64,000 nucleotides of DNA from an uncultured bacterium (GTDB taxonomy: Bacteria > Omnitrophota > Omnitrophia > Omnitrophales > Abzuiibacteriaceae). Numbering within the stretch: position 1 is the stretch's first letter; the number at the start of each line of letters is the position of its first letter. The position numbers and the translations under genes are program-made. The stretch covers positions 1 through 64,000 of the forward strand of contig CAYLXA010000001.1 of NCBI GenBank assembly GCA_964387845.1, given 5' to 3'. The notes beneath the pieces were generated by a model. The model was not told the origin of the DNA. It ran no database searches and saw only the letters and a list, made by a program, of their open reading frames with translations. Below, in pieces: positions 2,975 through 59,386 of the stretch.

Positions 2975-2986
2975 TTTTATCCTTCT

Positions 2987-3014
2987 GTGCGGGCGAGGCA
3001 TGCCTCGCCCCTAC
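2987..3014. repeat. 28-nt palindromic repeat, copy 2 (proC/yggS junction)
   Basis: gtgcgggcgaggcatgcctcgcccctac. Confidence 0.8.
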
Positions 3015-3700
3015 GTACGCGCTCCAAACACCGCGGTACCGATCCGGATTAAATTGGAACCTTCTTCGATTGCGATTTCAAAATCCGAGCTCATGCCCAT
3101 CGATAATATTTTGAAATCGGGCTTCGCCGTCTTCTTTATTTTTTCAAACAACTCTCTTAACATTTTAAATGAAGCACGTGTTTTTGTTGCGTCATCCGTC
3201 AAAGGCCCGATCGTCATCAGGCCTTTCAAAGCAAGCTGCGGCAAATTCAAAACCGCCTCCGCCAGCTTTTCGGCTTCGTTTGGCGCAACACCGAATTTCG
3301 TGTCTTCCCCGCTCGTATTGACCTGAATCAAGCAATCCACGATCTGGTCTTTCCGGGCAGCTTCTTTATTGATGGTGTTCGCCAGCTTCAAACTGTCGAC
3401 TGAATGAATCAGTACGGGCGAGGCATGCCTCGCCCCTACACAATATTTCACTTTGTTCGTCTGTAAATGCCCGATCAGGTGCCAGCGAATGTCATTCGGC
3501 AGTGCGCGGCTTTTTTCGCGCCATTCCTGGACCCGGTTTTCGCCAAAATCACGGCAGCCGAGCTTATACGCCTCCGAAATCACTTCCGCAGGAATTGTTT
3601 TGGTGACCAAAACCAATTGAATATCCTGAGCGCTTCGGCCTGAGCGTGCACGCGCAGCTTCAATCTTCTCCCTGAGAGTCTCTAAATTCTTGGCAATCAC
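3011..3700 (-). CDS. yggS: YggS-family PLP-binding homeostasis protein
   Basis: 229 aa. 'LVLVTKTIPAEVI', 'FGENRVQE', 'WHLIGHLQTNK', 'LSMGMSSDFEIAIEEGS..IRIGTAVFG' match the YggS/Alr-N-domain fold. Palindromic repeat copy 3 is translated in-frame inside it (VGARHASPVL). Confidence 0.8.
   Translation of the reverse strand: MIAKNLETLREKIEAARARSGRSAQDIQLVLVTKTIPAEVISEAYKLGCRDFGENRVQEWREKSRALPNDIRWHLIGHLQTNKVKYCVGARHASPVLIHSVDSLKLANTINKEAARKDQIVDCLIQVNTSGEDTKFGVAPNEAEKLAEAVLNLPQLALKGLMTIGPLTDDATKTRASFKMLRELFEKIKKTAKPDFKILSMGMSSDFEIAIEEGSNLIRIGTAVFGART
3413..3440. repeat. 28-nt palindromic repeat, copy 3, inside the yggS coding sequence
   Basis: gtacgggcgaggcatgcctcgcccctac at 3413-3440. The yggS reading frame continues through it. 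Confidence 0.8.
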
Positions 3701-3773: not shown

Positions 3774-3868
3774 TTTCCCTCTCCCTCTGGGAGAGGGATC
3801 AAGGGTGAGGGATTTCAAATCTATCACCCTCATCCTAACCTTCTCCCTCTTCAGAGGGAGAAGGGATA
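3774..3868. repeat. CCCTCTCCC-type hairpin repeat pair (copy A), likely terminator region of the GldG-like gene
   Basis: 'tccctctccctctgggagagggatcaagggtgaggg' plus a perfect hairpin 'ccttctccctc-ttca-gagggagaagg'. It is homologous to 53490-53547. Confidence 0.6.
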
Positions 3869-5914: not shown

Positions 5915-5922
5915 GTTATTTT

Positions 5923-5950
5923 GTACGGGCGAGGCACGCCTCGCCCCTAC
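5923..5950. repeat. 28-nt palindromic repeat, copy 4 (tyrS / GldG-like intergenic)
   Basis: gtacgggcgaggcacgcctcgcccctac. Confidence 0.8.
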
Positions 5951-7170
5951 TTAAGACTGACGCGGGCAAACTTGCGCTTGCCGCATTGCACAATCACCGC
6001 CGGATCGAGCGCAAAACTGGATTCCGGCGACTCGACTTTTGATTTATTGACTTTGACGCCGCCCTGCTCGACTAAGCGGCGGCCTTCGCTTTTGCTCGCC
6101 ACGAGGCCGGCTTCTTTGAGAAGGTTCACGATATCGATTTTGCCGTTTTGAAGCAAACTTTTAGAAATTTTCACTTCTTCAATTTCATCCGGCATTTCTT
6201 TATTCTTGAATACCTGATCGAACTGGTCGCTCGCTTTTCCGGCAGCGTCTTTTCCGTAATAAATCGTGATAATGTCACGCGCCAGCTGGGCTTTCGCGTT
6301 GCGCGGATTGGTTTCGATTTCTTTGGCGCTGATTTTACTGGAAGTTAAATACTGGAAATATTTGGCAATGAGCGGATCCGGAATCGACATCACTTTTCCG
6401 AACATTTGATCCGGCGCATCCTGCAAAGCAATGTGATTCGAGAGTGATTTGGACATTTTCTGTTTGCCGTCCAAGCCTTCAATGATCGGAAGCGTCATCA
6501 CGACTTGCGGCTCCTGGCCGTAATCGCGCTGAAGTTCACGGCCCACAAGCAGATTGAATTTCTGATCGGTGCCGCCAAGCTCGACATCGGCCTTCAAAGC
6601 AACGGAATCGTAGCCCTGCATCAAGGGATACAGAAATTCCAGAATCGTGATCGGTTGCTTGTCGTCGTAGCGCTTCTTAAAATCATCGCGCTCCAAAATC
6701 CGCGCGACGGTGTATTTAGACGTGAGCGCTAGAAAATCCGCAGGCTTCAAAGCATCCAGCCATTTGGAATTGTAAACCACTTCGACATTTTTATTTTTAT
6801 CGAGAATTTTGAAGACTTGTGCTTGATACGTTTCCGCGTTTTTCTTGATCTCTGCTTCCGAAAGCGGCTTGCGGGTTTCCGAACGGTGCGACGGATCGCC
6901 GATACGCGCCGTAAAATCGCCGATCAGAAAGACGATCGTGTGGCCGAGCTCCTGAAGCGCTTTGAGTTTGCGGAGCGGAACCGTGTGGCCCAAATGCAAA
7001 TCCGGAGCCGAAGGGTCGGCGCCGTATTTGATCCGGAGTGGTTTGCCGCGTTCAAGCTTCTTCAGCAAATCGGCTTCGGAAATCAGGTCGACTGTATTTT
7101 CTTTGAATATTTTGAGCTGGTCTTGGGGCTTCATAGTGTTAAGTTTACAGAAATCAACCGCGCGATTCAA
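5947..7170 (-). CDS. tyrS: Tyrosyl-tRNA synthetase (true start possibly 7134, MKPQDQL)
   Basis: Class I 'HLGH' and 'KMSKS' motifs, with a C-terminal S4-like domain. Confidence 0.9.
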
Positions 7171-12441: not shown

Positions 12442-13479
12442 ATGATGAGCGCGTGCCTGGCTTTATGCCTCGCGCTCACTTCATGCACAATTTGGCACCC
12501 GATTCTCCCGAGCCAGGATCCGCCGCCGAAACTACCGCCTCAGATTCTAAATTATTATGATTATCCGAAAGCGCCTTACGAATCCGAAGTCATCGAAGAA
12601 AAAGAAGAAAAGAATTACATTTTCAGACAGGTTGAAATCCCGCTTCATTTACCCGAAGACGCGCAGCTGAAACCGCTCGAAGAGTGGAAGCGCGAATATC
12701 ACGACATCAAGCCCACCAATGAGAAAGGTGCGCGCGACCTGAAGCTTCATTTCGTGAACCGGCTGGATATTTATCTGCCGAAGAAAAACCGTCAAAAACG
12801 CCCGCTCATCATCATTTCGCCGATTTTGGGCGGCAACATGGTCGTCGATATCTTCGCGAAATATTTTGCGAAACACGGTTATGTGGCGGTGATCGTCAAC
12901 CGTAAAAAGTCTTTTTACGACGAATCGTTGGGCGGCACGGAGCAAGTTGAGAAATATTTACGCAGCTCCGTCATCCGTCTTCGCCAAGCCATTGATTGGC
13001 TCGAGGTGCAGCCGGAGGTTGATCCGGACCGGATCGGCGCATTCGGCATCAGTTACGGCGCAGTCTTGCACAGTATTTTGGCGGCCATGGAGCCGCGCAT
13101 CAAAGCACACATCCTCGCGATGCCTGCAGGCGACCTGCCGGATGTCATTATGGACTGCCCTGACGGCGGTGTCCGCAAACTCGTCAAACACGTGGAAAAA
13201 ATGGGCTGGTCGCGCGAGAAAATTTATTATTCGCTAAAAGACACCATTCGGACCGATCCGATGCGCTTTGCGCCTTATGTTGATAAAAACCGAATTATGA
13301 TTTTTGCAACACTCTTTGACCGCGTGGTCGGAACTTCGCGCATTTTTAAATTATGGAACGAAATGGGGCGTCCGAAACTCAAAACCATGCCGGTCGGTCA
13401 TTACGGCGCGCTGCTGGTTTACCCCTACCTCGAGTGGGCTTCCCTACGCTTTTTCAAGTCCCGCCTGAAAGTCGTTTAG
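12442..13479 (+). CDS. Alpha/beta-hydrolase (dienelactone hydrolase/S9-like) lipoprotein
   Basis: Lipoprotein signal 'LALTSC'. The 'GISYGA' GxSxG nucleophile elbow follows a beta-strand, and His is near the C-terminus. Confidence 0.55.
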   Translation: MMSACLALCLALTSCTIWHPILPSQDPPPKLPPQILNYYDYPKAPYESEVIEEKEEKNYIFRQVEIPLHLPEDAQLKPLEEWKREYHDIKPTNEKGARDLKLHFVNRLDIYLPKKNRQKRPLIIISPILGGNMVVDIFAKYFAKHGYVAVIVNRKKSFYDESLGGTEQVEKYLRSSVIRLRQAIDWLEVQPEVDPDRIGAFGISYGAVLHSILAAMEPRIKAHILAMPAGDLPDVIMDCPDGGVRKLVKHVEKMGWSREKIYYSLKDTIRTDPMRFAPYVDKNRIMIFATLFDRVVGTSRIFKLWNEMGRPKLKTMPVGHYGALLVYPYLEWASLRFFKSRLKVV

Positions 13480-15916
13480 CAAAGACTCAAAATTGAAGTG
13501 ATGGTACTCGGTTTCAGAGGCCGGCAATTCATCGGTGGCATTCGCCACCCAAAATTCGGGAAATTGATACACCACACTTTGAATATTGGAGTCGGGCGCA
13601 ATTGCCTGCGCGATTTTTCTCGCGATTTCGGGGTCAATTTTTCCGTAATTTTCGATCACAAGCTCGCCTTGCTTTTTGTAGCGTGTTTCATAAGCGCTTC
13701 CGGCCGGAAATTCGAGACCGGGCTTTTTGGGATTGCCTTTCGCGCAAGTCTGCAGATCGCGGACCTGCTGGTCCATCGCCGCATCAGCTCTCAAAAGCGC
13801 GTTTTCAATCGGCATTCCGTAGCTCGCTGCTTTTTCCTTCGGATCATTGTCACGAAAAACCTGAAAGTGATTCGCAGTGGTTTCAATAGCGACAGCTTCT
13901 TTTTTCTTCGCATCTGCAATCATATAATTGAAGCCGCTCGTCCGCGGATTGAGCGTAATGATTTTCTCCGCCGTTTCCAAAGAATCGGCGTTCTGCAGAA
14001 TGCGTTTTAAGAGAAACGGCATCGGCGTTCCTTTGAACGTTTCATCAACCGAATCAGAGCCGACTTGTCCGACCGAAATTCCCTGCTGATTCACGCCCGA
14101 TAAAACGCCCGTAAAGCCGTAATAACCGATGTTCGCGTACGGAATTCCGTTGTCGGGTTTATGGACCATGATAGCCGCCAATCGGTGAACGCCGATGTCT
14201 TTGACCCAATCGAGGTTGCGGATGTGGATTAATTTTTCGCCTTTCGTGGCTTTTCCGAAATAAACGCCGTTGGCACAGAACGATTCGATGTAATCCGGGA
14301 TCGCGTGCAGCCGCTTCACTTCTTTGAATGAAAGTCCTGAGCCGTCGGCAAGACCTTTCATTTCCATCAGTTCACCATATGTCACATAAGGCGCCATCTT
14401 TTTCCAGGCGCGGTTCAGGCGCCATTTCAGAATCCATTTCGAAATGCCCGGAACATAAAGCAAGCGGTTGAGGTAACGGCTGATTTGTTTGTCTGCGGCC
14501 CGGATTTCTTTTTTCATAAGACTTCCGTGCTGAAACCCCATTTCATACGCGCTGCCGTGTAAATACAAAACAGGAATTAGGCCATCGCGGACCAAAATTC
14601 CCTCTTTTGATTCTTTTTTCGAAATTGAATTGAGCAAGCGGTCAAAAGTTTTGTAGAAAAAGAGGTCAAATTTTTTTCCGTAGAAACTCGCGCGGGATTC
14701 ATACTGAGAAGAATCCAAGTAATAACGCTCCGGAATCACGTAGCCCAAGTAATCGTTCGCGTAACCGATTGCAAGCAGCATCAGCTTGCGTGCGTTCATG
14801 AGATTCTCGATTTCGAGCCCAACCTGCGAAGAAGCTTCCGCCGGAAGCGCCGCAAAACCGAGCTCGCCCATTCGGAAAACTTGAAATTCCGATCGGCGCG
14901 GGAAAAACCGGTTTCCGATGACAGGCGGAACACGCAAAAATGATGCGCGCAGCTTGACGCGCGGAAGCCTTGTGCGTTCGTGCGCCGATTTCCATTCGCC
15001 GCTTGCATCCACTTTTTTGAACTGGATAGACTTGATCTTGCTTTTGACGGCTTCTGCATAGAGCTTCATCTTTTTTTCAGGATAATCGGAATCAATACCA
15101 CTCGGGCGCAAATCACCGGAAGCGCCCTGCGCAAACAGTGCGACTGATCCGGGATTCTCGGTTTCCAAGAGTTTCGCGAGCTCGCCGGCGTAATCGGCCG
15201 AAAAATGCCGGTTCATTTTTTTGAGAATGGTTGGATGAGCGCCAAAAAGAACGATTTGAGAAACCAGCCCGTGACCTTCACCGTAAAATCTCACGGCTTT
15301 TACAAGTTCGGGGACTTCAATTTTCTCATCCATCCGGTTTTCAATCAATTCACCCGCATCGATTTCACCGTACTCGATGCGTGAGACTTGCGTTTCATTT
15401 TGAACCGCGAGCACGATGCTTTCTGCAATTTTGTCGGTCGTGAATTCAAAGACCTTGCGGTCAAATCCGCCGCCGATGAACCTTTGCCAGAACCGGCTGC
15501 CGATGGCACCTGTTCCCGAATGCGTGTGCGTCGCGAATATCATCACATGCGATTCAGAAAGGTGCCTGGCACCATTTTGGGCGCCTGGCACCGTCTGGGC
15601 GTTCACTTTTTTGACAACGGATTTTTTCAAATTGGAATCAATGAGGAGAAGATCCGCCGACACAAACACAAACGTTTCTCCGTCTTTTGTAACACTCAAG
15701 GCTCTTGAAAATAGCGGATCGAGAACACCCTTAGACGGCTTTCCGCCCCGCTTACCGTATCCGGCAAGCGGCGTCCCGATGGGCGGCGTAATCTCAATTT
15801 TGGCCGCACCGGCAAAAATCTGGCTCTCTTCGGCAAAAGATTGCTCAGGCAAGCACAATAAGACAAGCAATAGAAAAATGTATATGACGCTAGGACATTT
15901 TAACAACGAAGACATC
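13444..15916 (-). CDS. Secreted two-domain amidohydrolase: neutral/alkaline ceramidase N-terminal domain fused to a peptidase C45 (acyl-CoA:6-APA acyltransferase-like Ntn hydrolase) domain
   Basis: Signal peptide 'KCPSVIYIFLLLVLLCLPEQSFA'. 'AAKIEITPPIGTPLAGYG' and 'ATHTHSGTGA' match the ceramidase family. The C-terminal half ('FCANGVYFG...IRNLDW...IGYYGFTGVLSGVNQQGISVG') matches C45. The ORF track's upstream extension to 16218 is rejected. Confidence 0.55.
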
Positions 15917-16187
15917 GACGAAACCGCGTCTGGAGGCTGCCCGAGCATGGTGGCAAGAATGGGCTTCTCATCCAGCACCGGCACTCGAGCCGCTCCTGCG
16001 GCGCCTCGGTGCCTTCGCTCTCGCTCTTGGGACTTCGCCTTCGGCGAAGACCAAGCTCCCAAGAGCTCCGAGAGATGCTTCTTGAGAAGCCCATTCTTGC
16101 CGAGGGCAGCTGGAAGTCGAGTGAGGATTTCTCGCTGGGAAATCCGAGCGTCGGTAGAGTCGATTGTCTGAGTTAAGTTAAAATGTC
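15894..16187. repeat. GC-rich ~300-nt repeat element with terminal inverted repeats (copy X); overlaps the start of the amidase gene
   Basis: It begins 'gacattttaacaacgaagac' and ends 'gttaaaatgtcc'. It is alignable at roughly 60-65% identity along its length with 59085-59386, with shared blocks (cgcgtctgRagg, ggaagtcgagtgaRga, gagcgtcgg, gtctgag). Confidence 0.6.
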
Positions 16188-16299
16188 CAAAAAGGTCCTT
16201 TTTTATCTGATCGGCCATCTGAAGTTCCTCGCCTTAAAATAGTGCCATCTGTTTTGCTCATCTTCAAGCGGCTTTAAGCCAAACTTCTCTTGTGTTACA

Positions 16300-17160
16300 A
16301 TGCCCGCCATGAAAAATCAGATTCATCCCACAGCCATCATCGGCAAAAAGGTTGATTTGGGCGAAGCGAACGAAATCGGCCCGCATGCCATTATTGAAGA
16401 CGGCGTCAAACTCGGCTCGGCCAACAAGATTCTCGCCAATGCCTACATTTCATCCGGAACCGAATTGGGCAACAATAACGAAATCCACATGGGCGCCATC
16501 GTGGGCCATGCGCCGCAGGATGTGGCTTACAAAGGCGCCAAAACGTTCACTAAAATTGGCGACTCCAATATCATCCGCGAATACGCCACCATTCACCGCG
16601 GCACGAAAGAAGGCACCGCAACCATCATTGGAAACCACAATTTCATCATGGCGAATGCGCATATCGCACACAACTGCGTGCTCGGCAACCGGATCATCAT
16701 GGTGAATATGGCTTCACTCACCGGCCATTGTGAGGTGGAGGACATGGCGTTTCTCTCCGGCATGACGGGCTTTCATCAATTTACGCGCATCGGAACCCTC
16801 GCCATGGTGAGTGCGCTTTCTGCGATCAACAAAGACATTCCGCCCTACATGATTTGCGGCGGACGGCCGGGCGTGATTCAAGGGATTAACGTGGTGGGAT
16901 TAAGGCGCGCCGGAATTTCGCAAGCGATTCGCACGGAAATCAAAGAATCTTACCGGTTACTTTACCGTTCGGGGTTAAATGTAGAACAAGCTCTGAAAGA
17001 AATCGAAAAGAATTTCAAATCCAAAGAAGTCGCTCACCTCACCAGCTTCATCCGCTCCTCGAAGCGCGGCATCTGCGCCGGGCAAAAAGAGGGACTGGAA
17101 ACACTACTCTCCAAAAAAGGCAGCTCCGCTGGAATTCTGGAAGACGAAGAAGAAGTTTAA
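16300..17160 (+). CDS. lpxA: Acyl-ACP–UDP-N-acetylglucosamine O-acyltransferase
   Basis: Left-handed beta-helix hexapeptide repeats and strong colinearity with E. coli LpxA ('HPTAII', 'NAHIAHNCVLGNR', 'DIPPYMI', 'YRLLYRSG'). Confidence 0.85.
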   Translation: MPAMKNQIHPTAIIGKKVDLGEANEIGPHAIIEDGVKLGSANKILANAYISSGTELGNNNEIHMGAIVGHAPQDVAYKGAKTFTKIGDSNIIREYATIHRGTKEGTATIIGNHNFIMANAHIAHNCVLGNRIIMVNMASLTGHCEVEDMAFLSGMTGFHQFTRIGTLAMVSALSAINKDIPPYMICGGRPGVIQGINVVGLRRAGISQAIRTEIKESYRLLYRSGLNVEQALKEIEKNFKSKEVAHLTSFIRSSKRGICAGQKEGLETLLSKKGSSAGILEDEEEV

Positions 17161-27039: not shown

Positions 27040-27215
27040 CAAAGATCGTGGCGGATCCGCTAAGCAGTGTGGCGGAGGTAAACTAACTGAAAAGTTGGGG
27101 CGCAAAGCAAGAGGTCCGAAATGAAATTAAAAGGATGGCTCGGCTGCCGAAATTCATATTCAGAATTTGGAATAAACGCCCGTACTTTTTAGTACGGGCG
27201 TTTATGTTTTTATGG
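27040..27215 (+). promoter_or_regulatory. Candidate c-di-GMP-I (GEMM) riboswitch with an intrinsic-terminator expression platform in the 5' leader of the pilin-like gene
   Basis: 27071-27106 'GGCGGAGGUAAACU-AACU-GAAA-AGUU-GGGGCGCAAAGC' matches the GEMM core 'GGCAAACC-stem-GNRA-stem-GGGACGCAAAGCC' with identical spacing. A 13-bp perfect hairpin plus U-tract sits at 27174-27212, and the ATG is at 27226. Confidence 0.5.
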
Positions 27216-27225
27216 AGAAAAACGG

Positions 27226-28218
27226 ATGAAGCAAAAAAAGTTGGGTGTAACGCTGGTTGAAATCATGATTGTGGTTGCCATCATCGGTATAGTGGCAGCA
27301 TTCGCAATCCCCAACTATCTACGTTCAAGGCAAACAGCCGATACCGCTTCTTTGGAACAAACCGCACGTCAGATTGCGCAAAAAATGGAACAAATTTTCT
27401 GGGGCCAGAATCCAAACGAATATCCGCCGGAATTGTCGATGCCTTCCGGGCTTGTCACGTGGGCTGCGCCAACCAACTTGGGCAATATTCAAGATTTGCT
27501 TGAATTGCTCAAGAAAATTTGTGAACAACAGGGTAAAAGCTTGTCATCCGGCCAAATCGGAGATTTGACGGCCTCTGAAATTGCTGCCGATCCCGAAGCC
27601 ATGCAAGCGCTCGTTGAAACTTGTTTCCAGAACAATCCGCCACTAACATACACAACACCGGCCGGCGGACAAACCTATTTATTTTCTGTGTCATCACCCA
27701 ATGGAACCAACTACACGGCAAGCCCGGGCGGCGTCAGCCAAACGCCTCCCGATTGCACCGGTGATGCCGGATGCGATGACGGTGTTTATTGCAATGGTGT
27801 TGAAACCTGCCAGTACGGAAGCTGCCAGGCCGGAATTAGTCCGTGCGACGAAGGATATACCTGCCACGAATCTTATCAGGAATGTACTGAGGGCATCTGC
27901 GGAAACGGTATTTGGGAAGGTTATGAAGAATGCGGTGAAGAAGATACGGGATTTAGTTATGAATTCATGGAATGCATTAATTGCCGCTGGGAATTCGTCG
28001 GCTGCCCAGAGGGTTACTATTTCTACGACTGGGCATGCTATCCATCGCCGCCCGACTGCCCATCAGGCTCTTACAAACAACCCGGTCTCGGATGCTGTTG
28101 GCCCGATCCCGGCATGCCGCCGTGGCCAAGACCTATTCAACTGCCTACTTGCGGAGAAGTCGCTGAAGTAATCCCGGATGGCGGCGGGCCCCCTCCGATG
28201 GACGACCCGTCATTTTAA
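27226..28218 (+). CDS. Prepilin-type (GspG/type IV pilin-like) protein with a large Cys-rich C-terminal domain
   Basis: N-terminal 'KKLGVTLVEIMIVVAIIGIVAAFAIPNY' class III signal/methylation motif. The C-terminal 160 aa contain about 30 Cys in CGNG..E.CGE-type repeats (myxobacterial Cys-rich-repeat-like). Confidence 0.75.
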   Translation: MKQKKLGVTLVEIMIVVAIIGIVAAFAIPNYLRSRQTADTASLEQTARQIAQKMEQIFWGQNPNEYPPELSMPSGLVTWAAPTNLGNIQDLLELLKKICEQQGKSLSSGQIGDLTASEIAADPEAMQALVETCFQNNPPLTYTTPAGGQTYLFSVSSPNGTNYTASPGGVSQTPPDCTGDAGCDDGVYCNGVETCQYGSCQAGISPCDEGYTCHESYQECTEGICGNGIWEGYEECGEEDTGFSYEFMECINCRWEFVGCPEGYYFYDWACYPSPPDCPSGSYKQPGLGCCWPDPGMPPWPRPIQLPTCGEVAEVIPDGGGPPPMDDPSF

Positions 28219-29525: not shown

Positions 29526-30779
29526 TTGCACATGAAAACTTCAAAAAAATATGGTTTAACGCTGGTTGAAATTGTGATTGTGGTAGCGCTCATCGCACTT
29601 GTTTCAATGATCGCAATTCCCAACTTTATGCGCAACCATCAAACCGCCAATTCACAATCTTTTGCTCAAACCATTAAACAAATTGCCCAGAAACTGGAGT
29701 TGATATTCTGGGGCCAGAACCCAAACGAATATCCGCCCGTATCCGCCTTTACAAACGGCCTGCAAACCTGGGCAGCGCCTACGAACCTCGGAAACATCGA
29801 GGATTTGGAGCGGCTTCTTCAAAAAGCATGTGAAGAAATTCTAAAACAAAATTTCAGCGCGGCTTCTCTCAACGATCAAACAGTATTTGCCCAGGAACTC
29901 TTTAATTGCCTTGACGGGCATGTGATTGATTATATTGTCACCGAAGACTTACAAAATTATTGGTTTAATTTTGCGGATCCATACACGACCGGCTATTACA
30001 GCATCGGAAATGGTTTTAGCGAACCTAAATACAACGATCCCGTAGTGCCGGCTCCTCCGCCTCCTCCGCCGCCAGCTTGCGGAAACGGCATTGCTGACGC
30101 AGGAGAGTTTTGCGGCGAGCCCCAATTTCCGGGCTGTCACGCAGGTACAACCTGCATTAACTGTCAATGCGAAGCAATAGCAGGCTGTGGTGGCTTCTCA
30201 GGAGGAAGCTGTAATCCTAATTTTCCATCTACCTGTCCGCCCGGATATTCTTGCCATGCACAATGCCGCCAATGCGTGTTCAATAATTGGAACCCTACCG
30301 GGGGCGGCAGCTGTTTTGTCGGTGATACGCAAATTTTGATGACGGACGGAAGCACAAAAGCCATTAGCGATATTCAGGTAGGCGATCAAGTCGCCAGCTA
30401 TAATGAAGAAACTAAAACGGTGGTAGTATCAAAGGTTGATAAATTACTAATCCACGATCCGGAAATTTATTGGATCATCAACGATCGAATCAAAGTAACG
30501 CCGAACCACAGCTTTTATATTGACGGAAAATGGAAGCATATTGGACAAGCTGAGCTGGGTGACAACATGCTCAAGCATGACGGAAATCAGGAAGCTATTG
30601 TAAAAATGGAACTAATTACTATTAAAGAACCTATTTACAACTTGGAAATTCAGGACACGCACACCTACTATGCGGAAGGGGTCTTGGTACATAATGCAAT
30701 CAAGGGGTATACTCCCGGTTGGACGCATGGAAACATGGACGGAATTGAAGCGCCGGACGGTGATGGGGACGGCGGTTGA
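29526..30779 (+). CDS. Prepilin-type (GspG-like) protein with a Pro-run, a Cys-rich module and a C-terminal Hint (intein-like/BIL) autoprocessing domain
   Basis: N-terminus 'KKYGLTLVEIVIVVALIALVSMIAIPNF', paralogous to 27226. The Hint domain lies at nt 30312-30695. Confidence 0.75.
   Translation: MHMKTSKKYGLTLVEIVIVVALIALVSMIAIPNFMRNHQTANSQSFAQTIKQIAQKLELIFWGQNPNEYPPVSAFTNGLQTWAAPTNLGNIEDLERLLQKACEEILKQNFSAASLNDQTVFAQELFNCLDGHVIDYIVTEDLQNYWFNFADPYTTGYYSIGNGFSEPKYNDPVVPAPPPPPPPACGNGIADAGEFCGEPQFPGCHAGTTCINCQCEAIAGCGGFSGGSCNPNFPSTCPPGYSCHAQCRQCVFNNWNPTGGGSCFVGDTQILMTDGSTKAISDIQVGDQVASYNEETKTVVVSKVDKLLIHDPEIYWIINDRIKVTPNHSFYIDGKWKHIGQAELGDNMLKHDGNQEAIVKMELITIKEPIYNLEIQDTHTYYAEGVLVHNAIKGYTPGWTHGNMDGIEAPDGDGDGG
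30312..30695 (+). other. Hint/intein-like domain (blocks A, B, F, G) inside the pilin-like CDS
   Basis: The intein/Hint splicing blocks are present: 'CFVGDTQILMTDGS', 'TPNH' (TxxH), '...YNLEIQDTHTYYAEGVLVHN'. No endonuclease domain is present, and the +1 residue is Ala. Confidence 0.75.
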
Positions 30780-52625: not shown

Positions 52626-52687
52626 GTCATTCTGAGGCAAAGCCGAAGAATCTGCGGACTTAGATCCTTCGCTACGCTCAGGATGAC
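52626..52687. repeat. 62-nt imperfect palindromic repeat (copy P)
   Basis: gtcattctgagg-caaagc-cgaagaatct-...-agatccttcg-ctac-gctcaggatgac. Its reverse complement is about 85% identical to 56196-56255. Confidence 0.7.
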
Positions 52688-53489: not shown

Positions 53490-53547
53490 TCTAATCATCC
53501 CTCACCCTTCCCTCTCCCTGTGGGAGAGGGATAAAGGGAGAGGGTTT
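53490..53547. repeat. CCCTCTCCC-type hairpin repeat (copy B)
   Basis: 'ccctctccctgtgggagagggataaagggagagggttttt' is homologous to 3785-3830. Confidence 0.6.
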
Positions 53548-54111
53548 TTAATCATGAAAAACGCGCGAGACGGGGATATCAAGTTCCGTCACCGGAAGCG
53601 CGCTTAATATTTGAAATTGAAACGCTATGCCGTAACTCACTGTCTTCTTTGGCAATTTCGCCAAAAAACGGTCGTAGTAACCGCCGCTCCTGCCGAGACG
53701 ATTGTTCGCTTGATCGAACGCAAGACCCGGTACCAATACCAAATCAATTACGTCATTTGAAACCGGCTTCCGGAATTCAGGCTTGGGCTCTAATATTCCA
53801 TAATTACCCGGCACTAAATCTTTTTCCGGATCGTGAATCTTGCAAGGCATGAGCAGTTTACTCTTTGGATCAACCGCCGGCACCACGATGGTTTTCCTCG
53901 CCTTCACCGCTTCTGCCATCAGTTCGTGCGTATCGACTTCTTCATCGGTCGACACGTAAAACATGACCGTTTTTGCCGATTGAAACCGGCTGTCTTTCAA
54001 TATCTTATGACAGACCATGCGGCTGCGCTTCTTACGCTCGCTTGCAGGTTCGGCTTTCAATTTGGTGCGCATTTCAGCGCGTATTTCTTCTTTTTCCTGT
54101 TCGATGGTCAT
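53548..54111 (-). CDS. 5-formyltetrahydrofolate cyclo-ligase
   Basis: 'LVPGLAFDQANNRLGRSGGYYDRFL' matches the 5-FCL signature. Confidence 0.8.
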   Translation of the reverse strand: MTIEQEKEEIRAEMRTKLKAEPASERKKRSRMVCHKILKDSRFQSAKTVMFYVSTDEEVDTHELMAEAVKARKTIVVPAVDPKSKLLMPCKIHDPEKDLVPGNYGILEPKPEFRKPVSNDVIDLVLVPGLAFDQANNRLGRSGGYYDRFLAKLPKKTVSYGIAFQFQILSALPVTELDIPVSRVFHD

Positions 54112-54120
54112 AACGAATCA

Positions 54121-54317
54121 TGCGCCCGGCCGGAATTGAACCAGCAACCCTCTCCTTAGGACGGAGATGCTCTATCCAATTGTCCTGACTTTCATTAAAA
54201 CCCCAATGCGTTTATTCATCGGAAGTCAGGACTACCCTTGCGCTTTCATTAAAACCGATTCATTCGGTCTATCAGTAGCGCAAGGGTTGAGCTACAGGCT
54301 TAGTAAATTTTAATATC
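54121..54317 (-). pseudogene. Second tRNA-Arg(CCT)-like copy with a degenerate acceptor stem and a ~110-nt two-hairpin insertion in the D-loop
   Basis: Minus strand: 'GCCTGTAGCTCAA' + [CCCTTGCGC...GCGCAAGGG, GTCCTGAC...GTCAGGAC] + 'AATTGGATAGAGCATCTCCGTCCTAAGGAGAGGGTTGCTGGTTCAATTCCGGCCGGGCGCA'. Confidence 0.6.
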
Positions 54318-54391
54318 TGCCCTCGGCCGGAATTGAACCAGCAACCCTCTCCTTAGGACGGAGATGCTCTATCCAATTGAGCTACGAGGGC
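54318..54391 (-). tRNA. tRNA-Arg (anticodon CCT), 74 nt
   Basis: GCCCTCGTAGCTCAATTGGATAGAGCATCTCCGTCCTAAGGAGAGGGTTGCTGGTTCAATTCCGGCCGAGGGCA. Confidence 0.9.
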
Positions 54392-54469
54392 ACAATTGTA
54401 GCATTTTATCATAAAACCACGGGGAGATATTCCGAAACTTACAGATAAAAATAAGCCGCAAACGGGAGA

Positions 54470-56195: not shown

Positions 56196-56255
56196 GTCAT
56201 CCTGAACGAAGTGAAAGATCTAAGTCCGTAGATTCTTCGCTTCGCTCAGAATGAC
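56196..56255. repeat. 62-nt imperfect palindromic repeat (copy Q)
   Basis: gtcatcctgaacgaagtgaaagatctaagtccgtagattcttcgcttcgctcagaatgac. Confidence 0.7.
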
Positions 56256-58964: not shown

Positions 58965-59084
58965 TCTATCTCCTTTAAATTCAACTAGTTACGCTATATT
59001 ATATATTGCGGAAAGTCAGGTATTGTAGCACATCCACAGATAAAAACCACTGTTTTGTAGACATGTTTTGCGGAGCTGCCGTTT

Positions 59085-59386
59085 GTACATTTTAACAGCG
59101 AAGACCTCAGCTGAGACGCGTCTGAAGGCTCGAGCGGGCATGGGGGGGCGGCAAGGGATATCTTCCGGCACCGGCAGTTCGGCTCTTCCTGCGAGAGCCG
59201 CCTGCCTCGGCGCTCACCGTTTGAATCCCGCCAGAAACGGCGGGAGCCAAGCTTCAAACGGTTGCGCGACGTGCCTACAGATATTCCTTGCCGCCGAGTG
59301 AGAGCCGGAAGTCGAGTGAAGACTTGCCTCGCCGGGGCAAGTCGAGCGTCGGCGAAGCTGAGAGTCTGAGCAAAGTTAAAATGTGC
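59085..59386. repeat. GC-rich ~300-nt repeat element with terminal inverted repeats (copy Y)
   Basis: It starts 'gtacattttaacagcgaagacctcagctgag' and ends 'gtctgagcaaagttaaaatgtgc'. It is homologous to 15894-16187 in the same orientation. Confidence 0.6.

Follow-up and report, generated by a model that had tools for sequence, protein, structure and literature searches.

We analyzed a 64,000-nt stretch of DNA (the window) from an uncultured bacterium of the phylum Omnitrophota (GenBank contig CAYLXA010000001.1, positions 1 to 64,000), which contains two copies, X and Y, of a GC-rich element of about 300 nt bounded by terminal inverted repeats (TIRs). Copy X lies inside a minus-strand open reading frame (ORF) for a ceramidase-like protein, and copy Y lies between an ATPase gene and ppdK. 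An original prediction, made by a model from the DNA letters without database searches, had pointed to the two copies; the analysis reported here follows it up.

Copies X and Y and their insertion sites

15894–16187, plus strand: copy X, 294 nt (98 codons), in the orientation in which it aligns with Y; inside the minus-strand ceramidase-like ORF
15894–15905, no strand: left TIR of X, GGACATTTTAAC; 5' arm of basal helix P1
16176–16187, no strand: right TIR of X, GTTAAAATGTCC; 3' arm of P1
59085–59386, plus strand: copy Y, 302 nt, intergenic; flanked by the ATPase stop codon (59426) and the ppdK promoter
59085–59096, no strand: left TIR of Y, GTACATTTTAAC
59375–59386, no strand: right TIR of Y, GTTAAAATGTGC

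X and Y, which are 43 kb apart within the window, are 66.4% identical over their full length and in the same orientation (BLASTN; 301 columns, E=1e-11), in keeping with the roughly 60–65% identity that had been predicted, and a MAFFT alignment of the two, in which the common blocks are CGCGTCTG, GCACCGGCA, CCAAGCT, GGAAGTCGAGTGA, CGAGCGTCGG, and GTCTGAG, finds every shared block that the prediction had listed. Its two further claims about the copies, terminal inverted repeats and raised GC content, also hold. The TIRs ACATTTTAAC ... GTTAAAATGT are perfect in X and Y alike and extend to 12 bp in both, with one T.G in the case of Y; imperfect complementarity runs on for ~45 bp. The 12-mer AAGTTAAAATGT has exact matches in the window only at X and Y. 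GC content is 56.8% in X and 60.9% in Y, as compared to 48.4% in the window.

To assess whether the two sites are occupied in related genomes, we compared the window with relatives from one JGI metagenome and from Logan runs SRR25730291, SRR25730292, SRR18669184, and SRR18669186. The named relatives of PpdK (74–80% identity) are all Candidatus Omnitrophota/Omnitrophica, and the relatives compared keep the gene order, with 75–87% nucleotide identity in ppdK, the S1 gene, lpxA, and the ceramidase gene. The X locus is empty in sequences L008, L009, L010, L013, and L014 from these relatives; in the first four of them the spacing between lpxA and the ceramidase gene is 80–116 nt, and the ceramidase has 827–839 amino acids (aa). 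The Y locus is empty in L011, L016, and L012, where the spacing between the ATPase gene and ppdK is 127–201 nt, as compared to 462 nt here. In alignments with the relatives, X and Y each appear as a clean extra block. That both sites are empty in relatives indicates insertion, rather than a conserved RNA gene or locus. We conclude that X and Y were inserted after this lineage split from its sequenced relatives.

The same comparison revealed a separate difference in gene content: two extra genes (DUF1643 and an unknown gene) are present between fabF and lpxA in the relatives from the JGI sample and from SRR25730291/2 (L008 13346–14556, L009 9416–10626, L010 6303–7513), and are absent here (window 17157–17160) and in SRR18669184.

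The genes and sites next to the two copies are as follows.

13444–16218, minus strand: Ceramidase_alk/AAT-domain gene, 924 aa, carrying X in frame; residues 11–108 are encoded by the element
15906–15915, minus strand: possible restart codons in frame, ATG at 15915 and TTG at 15906, within the end of X
59022–59052, minus strand: conserved block, presumed ppdK promoter, …GTGGTTTTTATCTGTGGATGTGCTACAAT…; identical in L012; between Y and ppdK

At the X locus, the ATG at 16218 aligns with the start codon of the relatives (M-x-x-Q-I/V-K), and the upstream intergenic sequence aligns together with it (window ATGGCCGATCAGATAAAAAAG vs. L013 ATGCGAAAACAGGTAAAAAAC). X separates this conserved start codon from the signal peptide's hydrophobic core, which resumes right after the element: the minus strand reads MADQIKKDLF-G[HFN...98 element codons...LLKC]P-SVIYIFLLLVLLCLPEQSFA-EE, with X in frame and free of stop codons. 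Contrary to the original prediction, X does not overlap the start codon; it begins 31 nt downstream of ATG 16218, inside the ORF. The fused 924-aa product is the one annotated by NCBI. All 49 of the 49 other homologues retrieved are shorter, the full-length ones typically having 800–840 aa, and the segment encoded by X is missing from the twelve closest aligned homologues. The ATG at 15915 or the TTG at 15906 could, judging from the reading frame, restart translation and yield a normal-looking signal peptide, MSSLLKCPSVIYIFLLLVLLCLPEQSFA.

The ceramidase-like ORF also carries, in frame, a 32-nt palindromic doublet, GGTGCCTGGCACC-N6-GGCGCCTGGCACC, at 15561–15592, which encodes VPGAQNGARHLS and is missing from all more distant ceramidase homologues. 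Matches to the doublet occur at L008 15802–15833, 16138–16150, and 17129–17141 and at L013 7531–7562; in L008–L010 the same gene has a second doublet copy in the n-region of the signal peptide (KVPGTQNGARHL) and two single 13-mer matches (solo half-sites). From its sequence, the doublet looks like a second, tiny element that inserts in frame in this lineage in the manner of the Rickettsia palindromic elements (RPEs).

At the Y locus, the element follows the ATPase stop codon at a distance of 39 nt and precedes the ppdK ATG (58964) by 120 nt. It is ~33 nt upstream of a block, TGTGCTACAAT included, that has the same sequence in relative L012 and presumably serves as the ppdK promoter. The placement of Y in the 5' region of ppdK therefore stands with respect to the distance of 120 nt, but Y is upstream of the conserved promoter block and not in the leader.

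Fold and covariation

Both copies are predicted to fold far more stably than expected for their composition. Minimum free energies (MFEs) are −158.9 kcal/mol for X and −167.5 kcal/mol for Y, with z-scores of −10.3 (X) and −8.9 (Y) against dinucleotide shuffles; separate shuffles for the two strands give z-scores of −9.8 and −9.9 for X and −9.3 and −7.9 for Y, and a control with 25 random 300-nt windows gives a mean of −0.3 and a minimum of −3.0. Each copy folded alone forms a nearly fully paired branched rod with the same helix order in X and Y, which, from the base, is P1, P2, P3, side hairpin P9, P4, an internal loop, P5, P6, and a three-way junction. P3 is built from conserved blocks CGCGTCTG and GAGCGTCGG; the asymmetric internal loop between P4 and P5 contains GCATGG; P5 is a long perfect helix (19 bp in X, 17 bp in Y); and the three-way junction bears hairpin P7, with loop TCCTGCG, and long hairpin P8, with a conserved 7-nt bulge, (A/G)CCAAGC. 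The domains are positioned as follows.

15952–16101, plus strand: X distal domain; P5 15952–15970 with 16083–16101 (19 perfect pairs), P7 15980–16013, P8 16018–16074
59147–59295, plus strand: Y distal domain; P5 59147–59163 with 59279–59295, P7 59173–59206, P8 59210–59267; same architecture, other sequence
16112–16155, plus strand: X junction block and P9; GGAAGTCGAGTGA 16112–16124, P9 (GGATTTC/GAAATCC) 16125–16145, CGAGCGTCGG as 3' arm of P3
59307–59353, plus strand: Y junction block and P9; GGAAGTCGAGTGA 59307–59319, P9 59321–59343 (10 bp, compensated relative to X), CGAGCGTCGG

A K-turn at the P4/P5 internal loop was considered and rejected by inspection, the bulged strand being without the required GA. 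The P7 loop (X 15995–16001, Y 59187–59193) reads CGCAGGA in the gene sense, which is Shine-Dalgarno-like; in X it stands 8 nt before an in-frame GTG (15984), the matching codon in Y is CTG, and the arrangement may be a coincidence.

To determine whether the fold is maintained by compensatory change, we applied RNAalifold to the MAFFT alignment, which was made from sequence without structural information. The result is a consensus of 92 pairs, of which 24 have both partners changed and still pair; all cells (100%) are paired, as compared to ~40% of cells and 1–3 compensated pairs in controls in which the partner is slid by 1–3 columns, and the observed pairing and compensation values are reached by 0 of 500 shuffles, with the caveat that the structure is derived from the same two sequences, X and Y. 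Because P5 and P9 are misaligned by MAFFT, these numbers leave out pairs that an alignment by hand at helix positions brings in, at least 5 more compensated pairs for P5 and at least 3 more for P9. Projection of the MFE structure of X on Y via the sequence alignment gives 19 positions that are doubly changed and still paired. Unpaired columns are more conserved than paired columns (74% vs. 63%). The results indicate that X/Y covariation is real and extensive, with ~30 compensated pairs at 66% identity. The two compensated internal hairpins of the original prediction both exist, but are only part of a fold that spans the element, and the signature of a structured RNA or of structured transposon ends that had been read from them is borne out by this covariation. 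We conclude that the intrastrand fold has been kept by compensatory substitutions between two subfamilies, one represented by X and one by Y, and that several unpaired motifs and the termini have remained constant.

G-U pairs (11 vs. 2) and MFEs (−158/−166 vs. −152/−150 kcal/mol) slightly favor the plus strand, but z-scores are equal for X and only modestly different for Y. Since GC skew of the plus strand is negative throughout the window, the G-rich, better-folding strand is on the lagging-strand side in both copies, an agreement that, with n=2, says little.

Relatives, coding capacity, and further copies

Searches for relatives of the element returned chance matches or none. With Rfam 15 at the gathering threshold, the whole window yields only three tRNAs and a c-di-GMP-I riboswitch, with no match to X or Y; at E<=10, X and Y yield, on both strands, only spurious microRNA and long-non-coding-RNA matches (E 0.39–2.1). 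Scans with the pattern GGAAGTCGAGTGA-N12-40-GAGCGTCGG gave one chance match in GTDB representative genomes, in a Mycobacterium coding region, and three in JGI metagenomes, all coding and otherwise dissimilar, and scans of IMG/VR with TIR-to-TIR and end patterns gave chance matches only; these pattern scans required exact conserved blocks, such that diverged copies would escape them. Plasmids and phages (blastn, distant mode) contain no match to the element. Predictions at the ends of X and Y and in the adjacent flanks gave neither a sigma-70-like promoter nor an intrinsic terminator. Literature searches found no match for the TIR sequence and no description of a repeat or mobile element for Omnitrophota. 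The c-di-GMP-I riboswitch is at 27067–27151 (plus strand; 52.8 bits), directly upstream of a prepilin-type N-methyl-domain gene (27226–28218); a paralogue of that gene 2.3 kb downstream (29526–30779) has 73–74% identity over the N-terminal ~200 nt and carries a Hint/pretoxin-HINT domain.

The claim that neither copy has a consistent ORF survives in part: one minus-strand frame runs open through the whole of each copy, against the claim, but the middle parts are in different frames, as it implies. The minus-strand peptides of X and Y have 35% overall identity, confined to the ends, and the CCAAGCT block is translated as A-W in X but as K-L-G in Y. Shuffled sequences keep a given frame open ~9% of the time (p ~0.09 per copy), so that, with two copies, the open frame common to X and Y and their 6-nt difference in length give only a hint of a family trait. 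A profile of the two minus-frame peptides found no relatives among 5.8 billion clusters and only a low-complexity artefact among 1.84 billion representatives. Looked up as exact sequences, ten small ORFs from within X and Y and nine versions of the ceramidase with other start sites were all absent from the collection.

Evidence on copy number comes from the Logan assembly of SRR15237813, an independent short-read assembly of the same genome, in which contigs end at window positions 26, 2154, 2178, 15961, 16118, 54350, 59115, and 59333. Four of these ends are inside copies of the element (15961 and 16118 in X; 59115 and 59333 in Y), and three of the other four (2154, 2178, and 54350) are in independently detected repeats, namely a REP-like repeat and a duplicated tRNA-Arg segment. 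The contig on the ppdK side enters Y by exactly 31 nt; with a Logan k-mer length that we take to be 31, this corresponds to a de Bruijn break at the point where the next k-mer is shared with another locus, and sets the repeat's left boundary at 59085/59086. X and Y have no 31-mer in common, and the breaks in both therefore imply at least one further X-like copy and at least one further Y-like copy in the sample. Further copies thus probably exist, as read from the assembly breaks; none, full or partial, was found by blastn (word size 7) in the window or in ~200 kb of fetched sequence from relatives.

The window contains other repeats. A REP-like GC-rich hairpin repeat, GTACGGGCGAGGCATGCCTCGCCCCTAC, has four intergenic copies in 4 kb (2149–2183, 2983–3017, 3408–3442, and 5919–5953), the first of which contains a Logan assembly break. 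The segments 54121–54182 and 54318–54379 are a 62-nt, 97% identical duplication of the 3' part of tRNA-Arg(CCT); the duplicate is ~135 nt downstream of the intact tRNA (54317–54392), a Logan contig ends there, and in sequence the duplicate looks like an att-site remnant of an integrated element since lost. A dispersed 44-nt repeat, CGAAGAATCTGCGGACTTAGATCCTTCGCTACGCTCAGGATGAC, occurs at 52644–52687 and, inverted, at 56196–56239 (89% complementary), and a similar sequence stands at the start of L020, ~6.4 kb past the right end of the window, at the end of a Logan contig. Another 44-nt repeat (TTCCCTCTCCCTCTGGGAGAGGGA...; 3775–3818 and 53508–53551; 89% identical) contains an internal hairpin, lies just past gene ends, and is possibly a shared terminator-like module.

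Interpretation and comparison with known systems

We judge it probable that X and Y represent a new family of hairpin-forming miniature non-autonomous mobile elements of ~292–300 bp in an Omnitrophota genome, of the general kind of miniature transposable elements with inverted repeats (MITEs), REPINs, bcr1, and RPEs, with two diverged subfamilies. The anatomy matches that of the known class: the elements are small and gene-less, with conserved inverted termini, imperfect complementarity throughout, filled and empty sites, and probable extra copies; both are within the ~500 bp characteristic of MITEs and have no transposase gene or conserved ORF. A MITE family had been among the candidate identities in the original prediction, and it is favored by the empty sites in relatives, the TIRs, the lack of coding capacity, and the assembly breaks inside both copies. 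The repeat family was previously uncatalogued, is real and well-structured, and is best classed with a kind of selfish repeat already known.

The divergence between X and Y (34%) is greater than the divergence of host genes between species, yet both are lineage-specific insertions, which implies two long-separated source lineages. Since each copy derives from an active source element and the fold is conserved between the subfamilies, we infer that the fold is needed for propagation. According to this proposal, the element would be handled as a folded single strand (single-stranded DNA [ssDNA] or, less likely, RNA) that is recognized by shape, and the enzyme would be supplied in trans, as proposed for REPINs with transposases of the RAYT/IS200 type. 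X would be tolerated by virtue of being a multiple of three in length, stop-free in the frame of the gene, and situated in the n-region of a probably cleaved leader, with the outcome that the mature enzyme may be unchanged or that translation may restart at the in-frame ATG or TTG of the element end; Y would be tolerated by virtue of its position between a stop codon and the next promoter.

Several observations weigh against a miniature mobile element. Only two full copies are seen, both in the window, with further copies deduced from assembly breaks, and no relative was found in GTDB representatives, JGI metagenomes, IMG/VR, plasmids, or phages. Neither the 64-kb window nor a ~6-kb extension of it encodes a transposase or a RAYT, and a longer element bounded by the ends of X and Y was found neither in the window nor in fetched flanks. 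In the flanks as read, no 2–10 bp direct repeat borders X or Y, which is atypical for classical MITEs, although the empty sites of relatives are too diverged to set the junction to the base and a target-site duplication may have decayed; a single-stranded intermediate would also fit the missing duplications. The three-way junction and the conserved loops are more RNA-like than a simple transposon foldback. Finally, X and Y could have been lost in all relatives, and not gained here, which is less parsimonious.

The RNA-like character of the fold raises the alternative of a structured non-coding RNA gene family (small RNA or large cis-acting RNA), in which the RNA fold is the function and the copies are dispersed paralogues, as the original prediction had also suggested. 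The strong covariation, the conserved unpaired motifs, the three-way junction, the GC content above background, and the greater number of G-U pairs and lower MFE of the plus strand would all be expected for such a family. Covariation, however, is no argument by itself for an RNA gene, because the same signature is documented for REPINs (PMC3116915) and for bcr1 (PMC3184786). Neither locus is occupied in related genomes; X is in frame inside a coding sequence; neither copy has a predicted sigma-70-like promoter or intrinsic terminator; the two strands fold alike, with nearly equal z-scores, and the better-folding strand is antisense to all neighboring genes; there is no Rfam family even at E<=10; and the perfectly conserved, AT-rich termini resemble recombination ends. 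We therefore regard an RNA gene family as unlikely. A related alternative, a mobile structured RNA of a new kind (intron-like or ribozyme-bearing) that removes itself from the ceramidase mRNA, would account for insertion in a coding sequence with no target duplication, for a terminal helix that joins both ends, and for a conserved branched fold. It is nevertheless very improbable: no group I, group II, or small-ribozyme match was found on either strand at E<=10, X is already in frame and open and so does not need splicing, and Y is outside any gene. A group I intron in particular was tried and rejected, since its boundaries (exon end U, intron end G) would leave an in-frame TAG or a frameshift, in addition to there being no Rfam match.

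Slightly more improbable again is a protein-coding module, that is, a functional domain of ~98 aa inserted into proteins, with the nucleotide structure being incidental. Such a module would be consistent with both copies being open end to end in the same minus-strand terminal frame, with lengths that differ by 6 nt, and with the fusion annotated by NCBI. But the middle thirds of X and Y are in different frames and the peptides are alike only at their ends (35% identity), protein relatives are missing from both the 5.8 billion clusters and the 1.84 billion representatives, one given open frame has a chance of ~0.09 per copy, and Y is intergenic, without the context of a start codon. Chance similarity of two GC-rich hairpins is already refuted by the E-value of 1e-11, by identical 12-nt termini that occur only at X and Y, and by the common helix order with at least 24 compensated pairs.

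The three-way junction, the conserved loops, the GC-richness, and the lack of target duplication are unusual for a miniature mobile element, and leave a small but real chance of something mechanistically new. At that same low level of confidence, the fold may be the working part of a mobile element of a class not described before, which spreads in the form of a structured single strand and is built to be translatable for life inside genes of streamlined Omnitrophota genomes; possibilities under such a class are a catalytic or guide RNA or ssDNA, or a substrate of an unknown structure-specific recombinase.

Taken as a miniature mobile element, the family neatly illustrates selfish DNA in which evolution preserves the secondary structure and not the sequence, and X exemplifies an insertion that a gene can tolerate, being in frame, without stop codons, and within a signal-peptide leader. 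The 924-aa fusion will pass through annotation pipelines as a real protein. Should many copies turn up in the full genome, they would offer good material for testing whether hairpin-forming repeats move as single strands, and would also be a source of assembly breaks in metagenome-assembled genomes of Omnitrophota.

Like classical bacterial MITEs derived from insertion sequences (ISs), the element is shorter than 500 bp, has TIRs, a stable stem-loop as transcript or strand, and filled and empty sites, and has no transposase. Classical MITEs are usually AT-rich, with target-site duplications and with ends common to an identifiable IS; in contrast, the element is GC-rich relative to its host, with no duplication seen and no known parent IS.

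Like RPEs and the in-frame intragenic MITEs (ERIC, BOX, QMITE1, and Anabaena MITEs), X is a palindromic, selfish, stop-free insertion that lengthens an annotated protein in frame (PMC10969869, PMC3184786), and in-frame intragenic copies are documented for RPEs and several MITEs (PMC10969869, PMC3184786). RPEs, however, have 105–150 bp, and each family encodes a conserved peptide (PMC10969869, PMC3184786). By contrast, X and Y do not encode a conserved peptide, only X of the two is intragenic, and the host belongs to Omnitrophota; X is in frame, but the X and Y peptides are alike only at their ends and change frame between them. Judged by these sequence features, the element is RPE-like in behavior at X but is not a member of an RPE family.

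The bcr1 repeats of the Bacillus cereus group are likewise MITE-like, with a distribution that is not conserved between close relatives and a compensated, cruciform-like structure (PMC3184786). As summarized there, bcr1 has a length of ~155 bp, 5-bp direct repeats on both sides, and known transcription (Delihas 2011, PMC3184786); the element differs in that no direct repeats were found and in that it has no sequence similarity to bcr1.

REPINs are also miniature, non-coding, and dispersed, with the whole unit folding as a hairpin in ssDNA or mRNA, with conserved ends and a variable but compensated interior, and with no classical target-site duplication (Bertels & Rainey 2011, PMC3116915); none is seen at X or Y either. 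REPINs have ~100 nt with two short REP palindromes and are strictly extragenic, with tens to hundreds of copies, beside a RAYT gene (PMC3116915). The element differs from REPINs in its threefold length, in its three-way junction and conserved loops, in having one copy in an ORF, and in having no RAYT in view, and its termini are not REP-like GC palindromes. It nonetheless has the hairpin fold and compensation of REPINs, and, as REPINs are mobilized in trans by RAYT/IS200-like transposases, so the element would be mobilized by an enzyme acting in trans.

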